A DNA stretch of 64,000 nucleotides from Oscillospiraceae bacterium (lineage in GTDB: Bacteria > Bacillota > Clostridia > Oscillospirales > CAG-272), in the NCBI GenBank assembly GCA_015063645.1, contig SVTS01000003.1, forward strand, positions 6,422 through 70,421, written 5' to 3'. Each line of letters opens with the position of its first letter. Position 1 is the first letter of the stretch. Below the pieces are notes generated by a model. The model made no database searches, was not told the DNA's origin, and worked only from the letters and a program-made list of their open reading frames with translations. This document shows, piece after piece, positions 53,668 to 60,500 of the stretch. The position numbers and the translations under genes are program-made.

Positions 53668-53726
53668 TTGACAACAGTATTCTACTGTGATAGAATACAA
53701 TCAGAATGCATTCTATCACAGTAGAA
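53668..53726 (+). promoter_or_regulatory. sigmaA promoter with two palindromic BlaI-type operators
   Basis: TTGACA-N17-TAGAAT; GTATTCTA-CTGTGA-TAGAATAC at 53677-53698 and TTCTA-TCACAG-TAGAA at 53711-53726. Confidence 0.75.
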
Positions 53727-53738
53727 CAGGGGATTACT

Positions 53739-54098
53739 ATGGACAAAAAACTGCATCCATCCGAGATCAATGTCATGAACATCGTATGGGAAAAGGGGAT
53801 CTGCTCCGCCAAGGATATCGCCGCCGCGCTGGCACAGTCGGTGGGATGGAGCAAAACGACCACCTACACCGTCATCGGAAAATGTCTGAACAAGGGCGTT
53901 CTGCGCCGCACGGATCCGGGATTCCTTTGTGAGGCTATTCTGTCCCGTGAGGAAGCCCGGGCGGCGGAGACGGGCGAGCTGATCGACCGCTTTTACGGCG
54001 GATCCCCCGATGCGCTTGTAGCATCGATCCTTGGCAGCGGCAGACTGACGAAAGAGGAAATCGACCGTCTGCGGAAAATGATCGGTGAGCTGTCATGA
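53739..54098 (+). CDS. BlaI/MecI/CopY family repressor
   Basis: SE..VM..VW, WSKTTTYT, KG.L.R and FYGGS motifs. Confidence 0.92.
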   Translation: MDKKLHPSEINVMNIVWEKGICSAKDIAAALAQSVGWSKTTTYTVIGKCLNKGVLRRTDPGFLCEAILSREEARAAETGELIDRFYGGSPDALVASILGSGRLTKEEIDRLRKMIGELS

Positions 54099-55537
54099 GC
54101 GCCGCCGTGCTCCTGCATGTAACGCTCAGCGGTACGGTGCTCATCCTGTACGGGATTCTGATGCGTCTCATCGCCGGGAAACGGATTTCTCCGCTGTTTT
54201 TCCGCACACTGTGGATCATTGCCGCTTTGCGGCTGTTGATTCTCACGCCCCTTTCCTCTCCCGCCGGGCAGCTTCCCGCGCCCGGAAATGACGGATTTTC
54301 CACCGCCGTTCTGCCCCTGCCGGGCATTCTGCCGTCTGGCGGCGGTACTGTTCCCGCCGGAAAGGATATACCGTGGCTGATGCTTGTATGGGGAGGAATT
54401 GCGCTGATTTTGGCGACGCGGATCGCAGTCCGGCACGGAATCTGGCTGCACCGCATGAAAAGCACGGCGCAGTCAGAGGAAATCACTCCGATGACGAACA
54501 TCCGCCGCACGGTACGTTTGTGTGTATCGCCGGAGGCAGATTCCCCCTGTACAGCAGGCATTTTCCGTCCGATGATCGTTCTGCCCATTCCCGCCGCCGA
54601 TTATGAAAGCAGCACTCTCGCCTGCATTCTTGCCCACGAGAGTGCGCATATCCGCCGTCTGGATGCGGCAGTCCGGGTACTGTTTTCCGCCGTGCTCTGT
54701 CTGCACTGGTTCAATCCGTTTGTCTATATCATGATCCGCCTTGCAAACTGTGATCTGGAACGCGTATGCGATGCAGACGCCCTCGCCCTGCTTGGAGAGG
54801 AACGCCGCACCGCATATGCTAAGGCTTTGCTGGATCTGGCGGAGGCACGCACCGCGGTGCTGTCTCTCGCCGGGCATTCCATGAGAGAAAGGATCATTTC
54901 CATTATGAAAATCAACCGCTATTCCGCGCCTGCCGCCGCCATTGCCGCCGCATTGTGCATCGGCTGTGCCGCCGTATTTGCCGCATCGCCCCATTCCTTC
55001 ACGGAGATCCCCGGCTCGGATCTCCCCATATCCGCCGTAACGCTCCCGGCAGAAACTGCCGCATCTGCCGAAACCGCTGTACAGATGCCGCCGGCTGCGG
55101 AAACAGACTCCCCTGCTGTGGAAAGCTGGTTATTCCCCCTTCCTGCAAACACGCCGTGGGAGATCACGCAGCCGTTCGGCTATATCAGTTATGCGGGAGT
55201 CAGCCATTTCCACAACGGAACGGACATTTCCGCCCCGGAGGATACGGTACTGCTTGCCGCGCTGTCCGGAACGGTCATTACTGCTGAATATTCGTATGAA
55301 ACCGGCAATCACATCGTCGTGGAAACCGCCGGAGGCATCCGGTATGAATACCGGCACTGCGCCAGACTTTTGGCGGAAGCCGGCGACACGGTACAGCGCG
55401 GCGACAGCATTGCCGTGATCGGTCAGACAGGAGATGCAACCGGCATTCACCTGCATTTCGGTGTAGAGACCGATGGTGCAAGCTGTGATCCCATGGGCAT
55501 GTTTACCCGCCGGGAAGTTACCGCATCCGCCGAATGA
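54095..55537 (+). CDS. BlaR1-type M56 metallopeptidase fused to an M23 peptidase domain
   Basis: LW...LRLL, GIFRP, HESAH, HWFNP, E..CD; M23 motifs HNGTD, YRH and HLHF. Confidence 0.88.
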   Translation: MSAAVLLHVTLSGTVLILYGILMRLIAGKRISPLFFRTLWIIAALRLLILTPLSSPAGQLPAPGNDGFSTAVLPLPGILPSGGGTVPAGKDIPWLMLVWGGIALILATRIAVRHGIWLHRMKSTAQSEEITPMTNIRRTVRLCVSPEADSPCTAGIFRPMIVLPIPAADYESSTLACILAHESAHIRRLDAAVRVLFSAVLCLHWFNPFVYIMIRLANCDLERVCDADALALLGEERRTAYAKALLDLAEARTAVLSLAGHSMRERIISIMKINRYSAPAAAIAAALCIGCAAVFAASPHSFTEIPGSDLPISAVTLPAETAASAETAVQMPPAAETDSPAVESWLFPLPANTPWEITQPFGYISYAGVSHFHNGTDISAPEDTVLLAALSGTVITAEYSYETGNHIVVETAGGIRYEYRHCARLLAEAGDTVQRGDSIAVIGQTGDATGIHLHFGVETDGASCDPMGMFTRREVTASAE

Positions 55538-57269
55538 CGGCGAGGACCTCCTCTTTGCGGGGCAGATCCAGAAACCGTTCACACTCCGTGAAAAAGGAGG
55601 AATACACCAGATCCACCCCTTCCAGTGCGATTCGATCGTACAGCGCATCCAGACGTTCGGTGATTCCTCCGTCCCCGTCTTTGCGGCTCACCGCCAGATA
55701 ACGGAGAATAAAGCCCAATGCCATCCGCTGACCGTCGCTGACCAGCGCCCGCAGGCCACGGATATCCACCTGCTGATCACCGATGCAGATGAATCCCATT
55801 CCGGATACCGTCAGTTTTTCACTGCCGCTTCCCTCCGGATAGGAGGAATACCCCTCGCCGGGCAGATGTTTCCTCTGAGACCAATCCGCATCGGGAGCCG
55901 CATCCGTCCGGATGCCGTATTTGCCGCAGATCCGGTGCGCCTCCTCCGTTACATCGGAAATCCGGTATTCGTCCATACGGTACACCCGATCCGCGCAGGC
56001 AAGATATTCCCCGCTGCCGCCGATCACCAGAACAGAGGACACTCCCCGGCGCGCCGCCTCTCCCACACGATCTGTGAACGGCGTGATCGGCTCTCTTGCG
56101 ATCAGCTCTTTCATCATCCGGTCGCGGATCATGAAATTCGCCGCGCTGCGGTCTTCATCAAGCAGCAGAAGCCTGGCACCTGCCTCCACCGCTTCCATAA
56201 CATTTGCCGCCTGTGACGTGGATCCGGAGGCATGATCCGTGGAAAAATCCGCCGGATCACCGCCGGGGATCCAGCGGATAAACGGGGAGATATTTATCCG
56301 CCTCACGGCGCGTCCCTCTTCTGCGGAAACGGACACAGCACTCTCATCCGTGATGCACAATTCCCGACCGTCCCCACTGCAGTGATCGTATATCCCTGCG
56401 GCAATGGCATCCAGAAGCGTGGATTTTCCCGAATATCCGCCGCCGGTGATCACCGTAACGCCCCGTCGGATGCCCATTCCCCTCACACCGGCGATTTCTA
56501 TTTCATCCCGGGCTGTGGACTGAAACGAAAGTGCATCCCGCAGGGGACGCTGTGTCCCCTTTTCCCGCGGAAGGATACTGCCGTTGGCAATGAATGCGCA
56601 GTATTCGCTGTCCCGGAGCCATCGGCGGATCGCCGCCTGTTTTTCCGCCAGCGCAAGCGTTTTCTCCAGCGCAGTCGGATCAAATTGCATCATGAACATC
56701 TCCACCGCCTCCGGCAGATCCCGGCAGAGCATCTGCACCGCTTTCCGCAGTTTGCGCCGGGGCAGCTGTACCTGTATCCGCAGGCACAGGCACATCGCCG
56801 GCGGCGGTGGATTTTCCATCAGATATACGGTACTGCCGCCGCCGTTTATGTAATCCTTCTGCGGGCGCAGAGCAAAATACGCCGTATTGCGCACAAGAAT
56901 TTCCCCGCCCGGACGTGCAAGATAATACCTGCCGTTTTCGCTGTCCGGTCGGCTGCGGTTATACAGTCCGGCATTCAGCGCATCAATATACGGCGCGAAC
57001 ACGCGCAGGCAATGATCTGCCGCGGCGGCTGTGTACGTCTGTATTCCCAACATCTCCGCGGGAATGCGGATCTCCACACTCGGCTTATCCTGCGCCAGTT
57101 TGTGTGTGCCGCTGATAAAGAATCCGACCGCATCGCTGTAGTATGTGGGATCGTTATCCGCATAGTCCGGTCCGCTGAGCGGAATCACGCCCATGCTGCC
57201 ATCGTACATGGCGGTGTAGGTCACCGTGTCCGAATCCATGGCAAGAAGCTTACTTTTCAACCGTTTCAT
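55518..57269 (-). CDS. ABC_ATPase (PF09818-type, MRB1590-like) P-loop ATPase with divergent N-terminus
   Basis: FIANGSILPR, GGGYSGKST, AEEGR, ASGSTSQAA, LLDED.SA.NFMIRD, EPITPF and GGSGEY motifs; GGAGG RBS. Confidence 0.88.
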   Translation of the reverse strand: MKRLKSKLLAMDSDTVTYTAMYDGSMGVIPLSGPDYADNDPTYYSDAVGFFISGTHKLAQDKPSVEIRIPAEMLGIQTYTAAAADHCLRVFAPYIDALNAGLYNRSRPDSENGRYYLARPGGEILVRNTAYFALRPQKDYINGGGSTVYLMENPPPPAMCLCLRIQVQLPRRKLRKAVQMLCRDLPEAVEMFMMQFDPTALEKTLALAEKQAAIRRWLRDSEYCAFIANGSILPREKGTQRPLRDALSFQSTARDEIEIAGVRGMGIRRGVTVITGGGYSGKSTLLDAIAAGIYDHCSGDGRELCITDESAVSVSAEEGRAVRRINISPFIRWIPGGDPADFSTDHASGSTSQAANVMEAVEAGARLLLLDEDRSAANFMIRDRMMKELIAREPITPFTDRVGEAARRGVSSVLVIGGSGEYLACADRVYRMDEYRISDVTEEAHRICGKYGIRTDAAPDADWSQRKHLPGEGYSSYPEGSGSEKLTVSGMGFICIGDQQVDIRGLRALVSDGQRMALGFILRYLAVSRKDGDGGITERLDALYDRIALEGVDLVYSSFFTECERFLDLPRKEEVLAVIRRMR

Positions 57270-57316
57270 ATGAGAATCACCTCCAAAAATTTGCCGGGAT
57301 TGGCTCATATGTCCCG

Positions 57317-57348
57317 AAAAAGAAAAAGCGCATCCGTATCGGATGCGC
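57317..57348 (-). terminator. Leader (attenuator) intrinsic terminator upstream of the ATPase
   Basis: GCGCATCCG-ATA-CGGATGCGC-TTTTTCTTTTT, between the promoter and the ATPase start. Confidence 0.85.
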
Positions 57349-57365
57349 AGTGAAAACATTGCCGC

Positions 57366-57416
57366 TCAAACAGACCGGGCGGCGGTCATGACATCCGGAA
57401 CATATGAGTATATCAT
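57366..57416 (-). CDS. Leader peptide uORF MIYSYVPDVMTAARSV
   Basis: AAAGGAGG RBS 7 nt before ATG; 16 codons plus TGA; too short for the ORF track. Confidence 0.7.
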   Translation of the reverse strand: MIYSYVPDVMTAARSV

Positions 57417-57447
57417 GGAATCGCCTCCTTTGGTGTTTGTTTTATTC

Positions 57448-57476
57448 AGTATAGCAGATTCTCTGGCTCCGGTCAA
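57448..57476 (-). promoter_or_regulatory. sigmaA promoter of the uORF-ATPase transcript
   Basis: TTGACC, 17 bp spacer, TATACT with extended -10 TG. Confidence 0.75.
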
Positions 57477-57510
57477 CGCAGAGATTGATTAGAATAAATC
57501 TCTACAGCGG

Positions 57511-57542
57511 AAAAGGGAACTTTCAAACGAAAGTTCCCTTTT
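57511..57542 (-). terminator. Terminator after the large SLH protein
   Basis: AAAAGGGAACTTTC/GAAAGTTCCCTTTT 14-bp stem. Confidence 0.8.
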
Positions 57543-57550
57543 AATCTCAT

Positions 57551-60500
57551 TTAAGCGGCAATCATGGGATAAACCATGACTGCGATCAGCCAGCGCAGAG
57601 CATCTGCGTTGGGATTCAACTTACCGTCTGCTACGGGGAGAATCTCGTTCTCTGCGAAGTAAACAACTGCTTCCAGAGCCCAGTCACTCACATCCTTGAT
57701 GTCCGCATAATCAGCGTTCTTCCAGCTGTCATCTTCGTATCCGCCGCCGTTCAGCTTGACCCAGCGGTAGATTACGGTGCACAGTTCCTCCACAGTAATG
57801 TTGTCATCAACGTAGAAGTTCTTAACACCGTCACCTTCCATGATGCCGAGTTCGTATGCCCATGCAACTGCGGGTGCGTAGTATGCATCCTCTGCAACGT
57901 CCTCGAAATCCATATCGGTGTAGATAGAGGGTTCGCCTGCAGCTCTCCACAGAACGGTTACCAGCTGTGCACGGGTAAGCGTCTCTTCTGCGCCGAAGTT
58001 TACTCCGTCACCGTTCATGATTCCCCTGTAGTAGAGATCCAGAACGATGTCGTAGTAAGCTGCTTCACCTGCCAGGTCTGCGTAAGGGTTAACGCGCTCG
58101 GTTACGATTTCAACCTTCTGATCCTTGCGTACGTTCTTGAGGGTGAATTCGGTAACTGCGCCGATGGACTTGCCGTTTACGATTACGTCGGTTACTACGT
58201 AGCCATCTTCAAGCTCAATGGTGTAGTCCTGAGACTTATTGAACTTGATCTGAGCAGCGCCGTCAGTGGTGAGCGTTGCACCTGCGCCTACGGTTGCTTC
58301 CACGTCATACTTCTGAGAGTTCATCAGTGCCAGAAGCATCAGAAGCTGCTGGTAGTCGACGGTATCGGTATCAGCGGGCTCCTCGGAAATAGAGTTTTCA
58401 GTCCACTGGGCGTAGAGCGTTACATCGGACCCGCCAGGAACGGTAATTCTGTCACCGGGCTGATAAGAAGTGCCGCTGCCGTCAGCCGCAGTGTTCCATC
58501 CTGCAAATCCGTATCCTTCGGGAGCAGTGAAGCCGTTTTCATCAATCAAAAGACCTGCAGCACCGCCTTTACTTCTCATTGTACCGCTGCCGCCGTTCGC
58601 GTTATAATGAATTCCGCCGTAAGTCACAAACCACTTTGCGTAAAGAGTCAGATTGGAGTTAACGGTAAATTTCGTATACTGCGTTCCGGTACCGTCTTCA
58701 TTCTCATACCAACCGTCAAAAGCATAGCCAACGCGAGTAGGACGGTATTTATATGTGTTCGTGTCAATATCAATCACATCGAGATTGAGAACAGTGCCGG
58801 CTGTTACGGTGACAGGAGCAATAGCAGAGCCGCCGTTGGATTCAAACGTCACAGTGTAGGATTTAGGAATTTCAGTCCACTTGGCGTAGACAGTCTCGTC
58901 ACCAGAAACCGTAAGGGAACCGATATACTTATCGCTTTGAGTATACCAGCCATCAAATGTGTAACCTTCGCGAGTGGGGATATATTTTTTATCCGCACTG
59001 TCTACACGGAGAACAAGCACTGTACCCTCAACAAAACGCTCAGGATCGATACGAGAGCCGCCGTTGGTTTCAAAGGTTATAGTGCAGTATACGGGATTCT
59101 TAGTCCACTTGGCGTAAAGCGTGAGATTCTGTGTAACGGCAGTGTCGAAATCGTACGCCTCTATCAGCTGGTTAATATTCTCACCCTTGGTATCCCAGCC
59201 GATAAATGTGTATCCCTCGCGGGTGGGCGCAGGGGAAGGAACTGTCACAGTCTCCCCCGAAAGAACAGTTACCTGTTCGGATTTACCTTCGTAATAATTA
59301 AAGGTTACGGTATATAGGGGAGTCCACTTGGCGAAGAGCGTAGTATTCTTGGTAACAGGCTTCTCAAAATCGTATTCCTTATCCAACTGGTTCGGATTTT
59401 TCGAATCAGTATCCCAGCCGAGGAATTTGTAGCCGTCACGGGTGGGAGCAGGTATAGGCGCAGCTACCTTTTCACCTGAGAGAACCTTTTCCTCAGCGAA
59501 AATAACACCGCCATTTTGGAATTTCACGGTATATATAGGAGCCCACTTTGCGTAAAGCGTGAGTTTCTTGGTAACAGGCTGCTCGAAATTGTATTCCTCA
59601 TCCAACGCGTTCTGATTAGCCGAATCAGTATCCCAACCGAGGAATTTGTAGCCATCACGGGTGGGGTCAGCAGGTTTAGTTACCTTTGCACCTGAGAGAA
59701 CGGTTTCTTCATGGAACACAGCACCGCCATTCTGGAATTTTACGGTGTAGGATTTAGGAATCTCAGTCCATTTGGCGTAGACAGTTTCGTCTCCACTCAC
59801 TGTGATAGAGCCGATCAGCGAATTGGGATCAAGATTTTCTTTTGAATACCAGCCATCAAATGTGTAACCTTCGCGAGTGGGGATATATTTTTTATCCGCA
59901 CTGTCTACACGGAGAACAAGCACTGTACCCTCAACAAAACGCTCGGAAGCGATAGGAGAACCGTCGTTGGTTTCAAAGGTTATAGTGTAGTACTCACCAA
60001 CTACAAACCGATCGCCGATCTGTGTTCCAGAATAATCATCTGTGATCCACTCGGGCTTGATTGCAGCGGAATAAGAACCTGCGCTTACCTGAATATTGGT
60101 TGTTCCGGTAGGTTCAACAGGAGCATTGTTTCCATCCACATCAGCTTTGCTGGCAACTATACATCCGTAGTTGCCAGTGGCCGTCATGGAAACACCGTCG
60201 CCGCTGATCTCAAGATCATAGCTGGCATTCGTATTTGTTCCAGTTCCAGCATCAGCATTTCTCACCAGAATGGGAAGCCATGCGGTAATCTCAACGCCAT
60301 CGCCAATAACAAGACTACCCTTGTTATTACCGTCTGCACGGATACCGTAGCCGTCAGTACCGACAGCAGTGATCTGCGTATCGGTAACCGTAACATTTTC
60401 GGAACTTCTCAGGCTGATACCGTTTTTACAGTCCGTTACTGTACAGCCACTTATCTCTACACCGGTAGTAGGATAGAGCTGCATAAGACTGTGCATACCC

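Follow-up and report, generated by a model that had tools for sequence, protein, structure and literature searches.

Related leaders and the element under study

Attenuators with comparatively long leader peptides, in which ribosome position selects between alternative hairpins, are known for erm, cat and bmrCD; these systems depend on specific nascent-peptide and drug contexts, and bmrCD encodes a pair of ABC exporters. Much shorter upstream open reading frames (uORFs) are found in the leaders of vmlR, cplR and lsaA. The element presented here combines features of several of these systems. It is a leader of about 200 nt on the minus strand of a 64,000-nucleotide stretch of DNA from an Oscillospiraceae bacterium (contig SVTS01000003.1; the whole stretch analysed is hereafter called the window), and it precedes the gene of a 583-aa ATPase (55518–57269, minus strand). 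We read it, with a probability of about 0.8, as an attenuator of transcription that depends on the ribosome and adds a second, translational lock on the ATPase gene.

In the vmlR leader of B. subtilis, as described in parts of Takada et al. (2022; PMC9226507), the uORF has three codons and its ribosome binding site (RBS) is single-stranded before a hairpin. Based on the same parts of that report, the leader studied here resembles vmlR in having a 5' anti-antiterminator hairpin that contains the uORF, an antiterminator and an intrinsic terminator, and also in having a separate hairpin that sequesters the main RBS and can be opened by an upstream segment in read-through RNA. It differs from the vmlR leader described there in that the uORF has 16–19 codons, with both its RBS and its AUG inside the hairpin, and in that the two leaders have no sequence similarity. 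The cargo of vmlR is an ABC-F protein, whereas here it is an ATPase of the PF09818 family. A role of NusG pausing is not supported here: a NusG-type TTNTTT pause motif precedes the first terminator in nine of 30 related leaders versus 5.4 expected, which is not convincing.

Concerning the cplR and lsaA leaders, sections of Obana et al. (bioRxiv 10.1101/2022.12.05.519065) give uORFs of 3–4 codons with the consensus MR[I/M] for cplR and MAGN for lsaA. In these sections the cplR leader of C. difficile resembles ours in that its uORF is sequestered in a 5' hairpin, attenuation acts on both transcription and translation, and the host belongs to the Clostridia; however, the cplR terminator itself hides the main RBS, whereas here this is done by a separate hairpin or a second terminator. 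The features of the vmlR and cplR kind found in our leader are a uORF with its own RBS near the transcription start, a terminator with no later promoter, and mutually exclusive structures. Because the uORF has 16–19 instead of 3–4 codons, the analogy with these two leaders is inexact.

Structures of the leader in the window

All leader elements and the ATPase gene lie on the minus strand, and the promoter, uORF RBS, uORF, terminator and ATPase RBS and ATG are all present at the positions that a preliminary description of the stretch had assigned to them. The promoter is of the sigma-70 type (57448–57476), with TTGACC at 57476–57471, a 17-nt spacer with TG, and TATACT at 57453–57448; ten of 12 positions agree with the consensus, and TTGACA/TATACT-like boxes were also seen by eye upstream of orthologous leaders. 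It is followed by the uORF RBS AAGGAGG (57424–57430) and by the uORF (57366–57416), which consists of 16 codons plus TGA (ATG at 57416, TGA at 57368–57366). The intrinsic terminator (57317–57348, -16.3 kcal/mol) has a 9-bp stem (57348–57340 with 57336–57328), a 3-nt loop and a T-run (57327–57317), and its end lies 48 nt before the ATPase AUG at 57269. The possibility raised earlier, that the ATPase gene has a promoter of its own behind the terminator, finds no candidate, as no promoter-like site was seen when the minus strand was scanned from the terminator to the start codon of the ATPase.

Our analysis shows four overlapping structures that compete in this region: a hairpin called P1, an antiterminator, the terminator, and the alternative between a long-range helix (b) and a hairpin (c). 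P1 (57378–57428) is the anti-antiterminator hairpin of the minimum free energy (MFE) fold. In it, the uORF RBS and AUG (57428–57407) pair with the 3' half of the uORF (57396–57378) at -15.8 kcal/mol; the RBS of the uORF doubles as the 5' strand of the lower stem, and six of the seven bases of a conserved box, CGGAUGU (box C, 57391–57397), are held in the hairpin. Box C is the 5' strand of the antiterminator (a), where 57397–57391 pair with GCAUCCG of the terminator 5' arm (57346–57340; duplex -11.5 kcal/mol). P1, the antiterminator and the terminator are mutually exclusive, since the overlaps can be read from the sequence.

Helix (b) consists of 15 bp between 57394–57408, which are codons 3–8 of the uORF, and 57304–57318 directly after the T-run, with an energy of about -23.0 to -23.5 kcal/mol (z = -2.25). 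Its 3' strand is alternatively the 5' arm of hairpin (c) (57267–57311, -15.4 kcal/mol), a sequestrator present in MFE folds that buries the ATPase RBS GGAGG (57284–57280) and AUG. The MFE fold of 57445–57255 contains helix (b) around the terminator (-58.1 kcal/mol, z = -2.34, with two of 200 shuffles as stable), and that of 57445–57250 has P1, the terminator and hairpin (c) (-59.0 kcal/mol). The preliminary description had named three competing pairings, namely (a), (b) and (c). All three exist as described, and the strands of (a) are conserved among leaders; P1, which holds the RBS and AUG of the uORF, had been overlooked.

Conservation and distribution of the leader

Of 61 related genomes, 13 encode a homologue of the ATPase. 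Every homologue in family f1 with enough flanking DNA is preceded by the same layout (for L012 the leader sits on a second, overlapping contig, L073), which is also present before a paralogous clade at 33–40% identity. The shared order is a promoter, GGAGG[C/U]GA, an AUG 4–8 nt later, a short open reading frame (ORF) with UCGGAUG, the RBS-pairing UCGCC, and a terminator with ACAUCCGA or a variant of it as the 5' arm in the related leaders. In leader L070 a GGCGG:CCGCC pair is found in place of GGCGA:UCGCC. A chance arrangement is excluded, because the layout recurs upstream of homologous genes in many genomes. Genomes G012 and G013 (L007, L009) carry an orthologue and a paralogue (36–40% identity) in tandem, each with its own leader.

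The distribution of the leader was followed with two covariance models, R1 built from 12 leaders and R2 built from 30. Matches of R1 are found in 30 of 151 genomes of the same family, and matches of R2 in seven of 151 genomes of the order and five of 150 of the class. Five weak model matches (L074, L076, L077, L078 and L080) were judged false by eye, with either no uORF or no boxes. None of the 27 class-level PF09818 genes with the usual N-terminus carries the leader within 1.5 kb (five of them inspected by hand), so the leader is confined to one clade with its own N-terminal region. In an Rfam scan of the leader up to E 10 no family was found (best 23.2 bits versus a gathering score of 55), and the window's own genome contains no second leader of the same class (next best E 0.06). 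The leader is a new, well-populated RNA family outside Rfam.

The related leaders listed come from metagenome-assembled genomes (MAGs) of Clostridia, Oscillospiraceae, Lachnospiraceae and Acutalibacteraceae from animal guts. Also, five DNA runs labelled feces or bovine gut metagenome contain more than half of the sampled words of 55518–57560. In three leaders (L009:1010–1500, L007 and L135:410–770) several GC-rich palindromic repeats of about 60–70 nt were seen by eye between the terminators and the ATPase start, and these stretch the leaders to about 500 nt.

Aligning the orthologues, which had been proposed as a check, shows that the uORF and the terminator are conserved and that the terminator covaries. 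In MAFFT alignment A1, which was made blind to structure, the share of paired cells is 78.5% for P1, 83.7% for the antiterminator and 89.7% for the terminator; six of the nine terminator pairs are altered on both sides, and all five structure measures beat all 500 shuffles and every slid control. Two further alignments were fitted to the covariance model, which inflates their pair counts: in A3, P1 is 80.7% paired with eight of 16 pairs altered on both sides, and in A5 it is 87.9% paired with seven of 16, while seven and five of the nine terminator pairs, respectively, are altered on both sides. For A3 a threshold of E <= 1e-8 was used, which removed antisense matches on the P1 palindrome; the antiterminator is paired in 88.3% of its cells. 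P1 is present in 11 of 12 single-sequence MFE folds of leaders. The support for the antiterminator consists of conservation and energy; in leader L006, for example, it has -15.3 kcal/mol versus -13.0 kcal/mol for the first terminator.

As for the second lock, helix (b) also occurs outside the window leader. A scan of the first 36 nt of the uORF against 68 nt around the end of the T-run gave a (b)-like duplex with z <= -2 in eight of 29 leaders, and additionally in L094; the sequences are unrelated and the energies range from -19 to -27 kcal/mol. Of eight leaders examined, seven have the 3' strand of helix (b) paired with the main-gene RBS in the MFE fold, and in the remaining one this strand is the 5' arm of a second terminator. 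A second terminator (GCACCC, 3–4 nt, GGGUGC and a T-run) is present in 16 of 32 leaders, and leaders without helix (b) mostly have it. The 5' arm of this second terminator can pair with the 3' arm of terminator 1 (about -9.8 kcal/mol), and through this pairing an antiterminated terminator 1 could relay the signal to it.

The upstream reading frame

In all aligned leaders the AUG of the uORF stands at the right spacing from its RBS, and in 29 of 30 leaders at least the first 14 codons of its frame are free of stops. By comparison, stops are found in frame +2 in 13 of the 30, and in frame +1 always, trivially, through the conserved AUGA. In a larger leader set the uORF is open in 55 of 55 and has 16–19 codons in 50. 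Box C is read in frames 0, 1 and 2 in 10, 8 and 12 leaders, respectively, with RMS-, SDV- or IGC-type stretches as the result, and the 55 uORFs encode 48 different peptides. Because the frame stays open though the box is read in three different frames, selection appears to act on a translatable frame, with the four-codon uORF of G005 and G008 as the exception, and on the RNA boxes and structure, and the peptide is not conserved. This lack of peptide conservation across frames distinguishes the leader from those of erm, cat and bmrCD.

Concerning the position of the uORF, box C starts 17–25 nt after the A of the AUG in most leaders, and the uORF stop lies 17–31 nt before terminator 1 in most leaders. 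The stop UGA is not enriched, as it closes 38 of the 55 uORFs and 15 of 26 long ORFs in the window. Context-specific stall motifs (A, S or T before Tyr) were looked for by eye and set aside: they are inconsistent, and a ribosome there would cover box C. A promoter-like site is also found on the opposite strand inside the uORF (ATGACA, 17 nt, TATCAT; 57388–57416, plus strand), probably by chance.

A uORF followed by a terminator with alternative pairing would also be expected of an attenuator that responds to amino-acid starvation, as in trp, his or leu. The uORF, however, is without a run of any single codon or residue, the peptides differ widely, the box is read in three frames and the downstream gene is not biosynthetic, and we consider an attenuator of this type extremely improbable.

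Genes behind the leader

To find leaders independently of the gene behind them, one genome per species was scanned for the pattern of RBS, AUG and box C. This gave more than 120 stretches, of which 80 loci were listed; the loci included expected chance matches in unrelated phyla. Among the loci listed, R2 confirms 56 leaders, 48 of which have enough downstream DNA. A homologue of the PF09818/MRB1590-type ATPase is found downstream in 44 of these 48, a count which takes in one operon of a GNAT protein and the ATPase, one decayed fragment and one gene counted twice (two leader-like matches). The other four are one gene of the helix-turn-helix (HTH) type with an ABC exporter, and three unclear cases.

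Some leaders of the same class precede other genes. In G570 a related leader stands before a 492-aa protein which passes the NCBIfam cut-off for Lsa-family ABC-F proteins (762 versus 750 bits), and this fits the likeness to ABC-F leaders noted in the preliminary description. Three tandem permease/ATPase pairs of ABC exporters are preceded by leaders with canonical boxes, and in this some cargos of the class resemble bmrCD. Leaders of the class are also found before GNAT proteins. Further matches before RtcB-family, AAA_18+GNAT and multi-GNAT genes (L092, L093, L096 and L097; E 8e-7 to 9e-6) were kept as leads only, since they have the architecture in common and not the boxes.

Several individual loci can be added. 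In a Lachnospiraceae MAG (L149:4963–7255) the leader is followed by the gene of a 170-aa GNAT acetyltransferase and, directly after it, the ATPase gene, in an apparent operon. In G510 (L104:1130–1440) a canonical leader is followed by a decayed ATPase fragment, a promoter-like site and an Lsa-like ABC-F gene, and a similar ATPase remnant is found before an ABC exporter fragment in L194. The window's own genome has an Lsa-like ABC-F gene (G000:C67:18100–19563, L106) with 60% identity to the G570 protein, and no leader of the same class was found near it.

The variety of these genes bears on another explanation, by which the leader acts as an RNA that resembles a riboswitch or binds a protein. 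The partner bound by P1 and its loop would be either a ligand or a protein, the ATPase itself being one possibility, and the uORF would be incidental. The UCGGAUG box and a UAUAU stretch in the P1 loop are indeed conserved beyond the needs of pairing, and the trypanosome homologue MRB1590 binds RNA according to parts of the literature on it. However, the same boxes are also found in leaders of unrelated genes (Lsa, ABC exporters), a distribution that speaks against autoregulation by the ATPase; the spacing of RBS and AUG and the open frame are kept across three different frames; and even the permissive Rfam scan gave no match. We therefore hold a binding RNA of this kind to be very unlikely.

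Proposed mechanism and possible stall sites

An attenuator that depends on the uORF, with a second switch on the ATPase RBS, had been proposed from the window alone, and it is now supported by the conserved uORF, box and terminator and by the recurrence of helix (b). In the mechanism that we propose, P1 would form when no ribosome is held on the uORF; box C would then be hidden, the terminator would form and the gene would be off, and in any read-through RNA the ATPase RBS would be closed by hairpin (c). A ribosome held on the uORF would block a strand of P1 and leave box C free to pair with the terminator arm, giving read-through. Helix (b) would then draw the anti-RBS segment from hairpin (c) and open the ATPase RBS. 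In leaders with (b) and (c), the uORF region would thus open the second lock; in relay leaders, the 3' arm of terminator 1, once released, would do so. When an initiating ribosome is masked in the fold, the mean probability that the terminator 5' arm is paired upstream rises from 0.60 to 0.82, and it increases by more than 0.2 in 13 of 30 leaders.

The signal is likely to be disturbed translation, such as that caused by antibiotics that target the ribosome, in line with the leaders of vmlR, cplR and lsa; this is suggested by the analogy with known leaders and by the cargos. Two positions, the start codon and the last codons of the uORF, are possible for the stall, and neither is preferred. If the ribosome stalled at the start codon, box C would lie just beyond the +16 toeprint edge reported for vmlR, and the uORF of only four codons in an identical leader of G005 and G008 fits this model only. 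With a stall at the last codons, codons 3–8 would be free for helix (b), and the fixed uORF length would be explained; this length may also reflect only the need to stop before the terminator.

The length of the uORF and the position of its stop are equally relevant to a different use of the same attenuator, in which it would gauge translational capacity and not sense a drug or a stall. Normal coupled translation as far as the stop of the uORF would mask the 3' strand of P1 and so allow read-through, and the gene would be off when ribosomes fail to load. From these two features, a terminating ribosome would cover the anti-RBS strand and not box C, and the need of helix (b) for free codons 3–8 fits a ribosome at the uORF end. 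Yet the RBS and AUG of the uORF are hidden in P1, so that off would be the expected default; in the window, neither the upper stem of P1 nor the terminator is disrupted by a ribosome placed at the stop codon; the four-codon uORF of G005 and G008 does not fit; and the genes behind leaders of this class include resistance-type genes, a kind that is usually inducible. We regard a capacity gauge as unlikely.

Several observations weigh against the ribosome-dependent attenuator that we favour. At equilibrium the free leader already often has the terminator arm paired upstream (the value of 0.60 given above), and the antiterminator of G005 and G008, whose uORF ends at its TAG after the four codons, is predicted to form without any ribosome. 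Covariation of the antiterminator is not above shuffles in A1 and A3, because it is so conserved, and the inflated pair counts of A3 and A5 count here as well. Each stall position has a difficulty of its own: a ribosome at the start codon frees box C and covers part of helix (b), and one at the last codons does not, in the window, open the upper stem of P1. The lincosamide- and pleuromutilin-sensing leaders, in the parts of the reports cited above, have uORFs of 3–4 codons, where here the longer uORF is the rule. Among the 17 Lsa-like loci of the family, only two have the leader; at one of them, G510, a promoter-like site lies between leader and lsa, and since an ATPase gene remnant lies between them too, it is not counted as a clean case. 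In metatranscriptome runs X19 and X20, which contain small shares of the sampled words, contigs lie on parts of the ATPase gene only, come from relatives (90–99% likeness) and do not extend over any of 57171–57700, which we count on the same side although it proves nothing either way.

The ATPase and the surrounding genes

The regulated gene had been described as coding for a PF09818-type ATPase, which is confirmed (PF09818 ABC_ATPase, E 1.3e-96, 323 bits versus a cut-off of 23.2); to this we add a C-terminal MRB1590_C domain (E 6.5e-10, 40 versus 27 bits). An ABC-F identity is ruled out, as Pfam gives no ABC_tran match in the protein. No NCBIfam model matches the window ATPase, unlike the protein of L081. 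Among solved structures, PDB 5d6a ('Predicted ATPase of the ABC class') and those of MRB1590 come closest (E 5e-70 to 6e-66), and the GGGYSGKST and LLLDED stretches align with both. The window ATPase thus has an ABC-fold core and a C-terminal domain in common with PDB 5d6a and MRB1590/KRBP72 of Trypanosoma brucei. MRB1590/KRBP72, in the portions of the literature that describe it, is a dimeric RNA-binding ABC-fold ATPase and a mitochondrial accessory factor which helps kRNA editing pass RNA structure. A literature search, with supplements outside its range, found no paper on the function of a bacterial PF09818 member.

The N-terminal region of the bacterial clade differs from that of MRB1590. 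It consists of a module of about 75–80 aa which is often duplicated and which no Pfam family covers. The window ATPase has a single copy (57045–57269), and many orthologues (L004–L007, L011 and L022) have two copies of the first 75–80 aa module (MKRLK...YY...AQD.P.V). A protein atlas search with residues 1–170 was uninformative (best score 0.77). An AlphaFold2 model of the ATPase, made from 10 sequences, was too poor to search for similar folds (mean pLDDT 54.4, pTM 0.39) and was not used.

The upstream neighbour is a 1486-aa surface protein with SLH and Listeria-Bacteroides repeats, which ends at 57551 and has its own terminator at 57542–57511. The downstream neighbour is convergent, and the ATPase gene is therefore monocistronic. 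This neighbour, within 53706–55537 on the plus strand, encodes a 480-aa protein in which a BlaR1-type M56 peptidase is fused to an M23 domain. It is preceded by a 130-aa ORF, which could be the repressor of the BlaR1-type protein.

Implications for the PF09818 family and gut Clostridia

This conserved RNA leader is new; its mechanism is of a known kind, and some of its features are unusual. One of these is that the sensor hairpin contains the uORF's own RBS and start codon; another is the second lock behind terminator 1, in the form of a relay to a second terminator or of an RBS sequestrator. PF09818 is a large family with solved structures, and its only member known to have been studied remodels RNA in trypanosome mitochondria. 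A ribosome-sensing leader before one clade suggests the hypothesis that disturbed translation leads to synthesis of the ATPase, which would act on RNA or ribosomes. We put forward only tentatively that the leader-bearing PF09818/MRB1590-type clade is a new class of translation-stress or antibiotic-response factor acting on RNA or the ribosome. If so, the clade would be switched on by the kind of sensor that controls Lsa-type ABC-F proteins and drug exporters, and the ATPase might contribute to the intrinsic tolerance of ribosome-targeting antibiotics in gut Clostridia. The leader could also mark inducible genes in uncultured members of this group.

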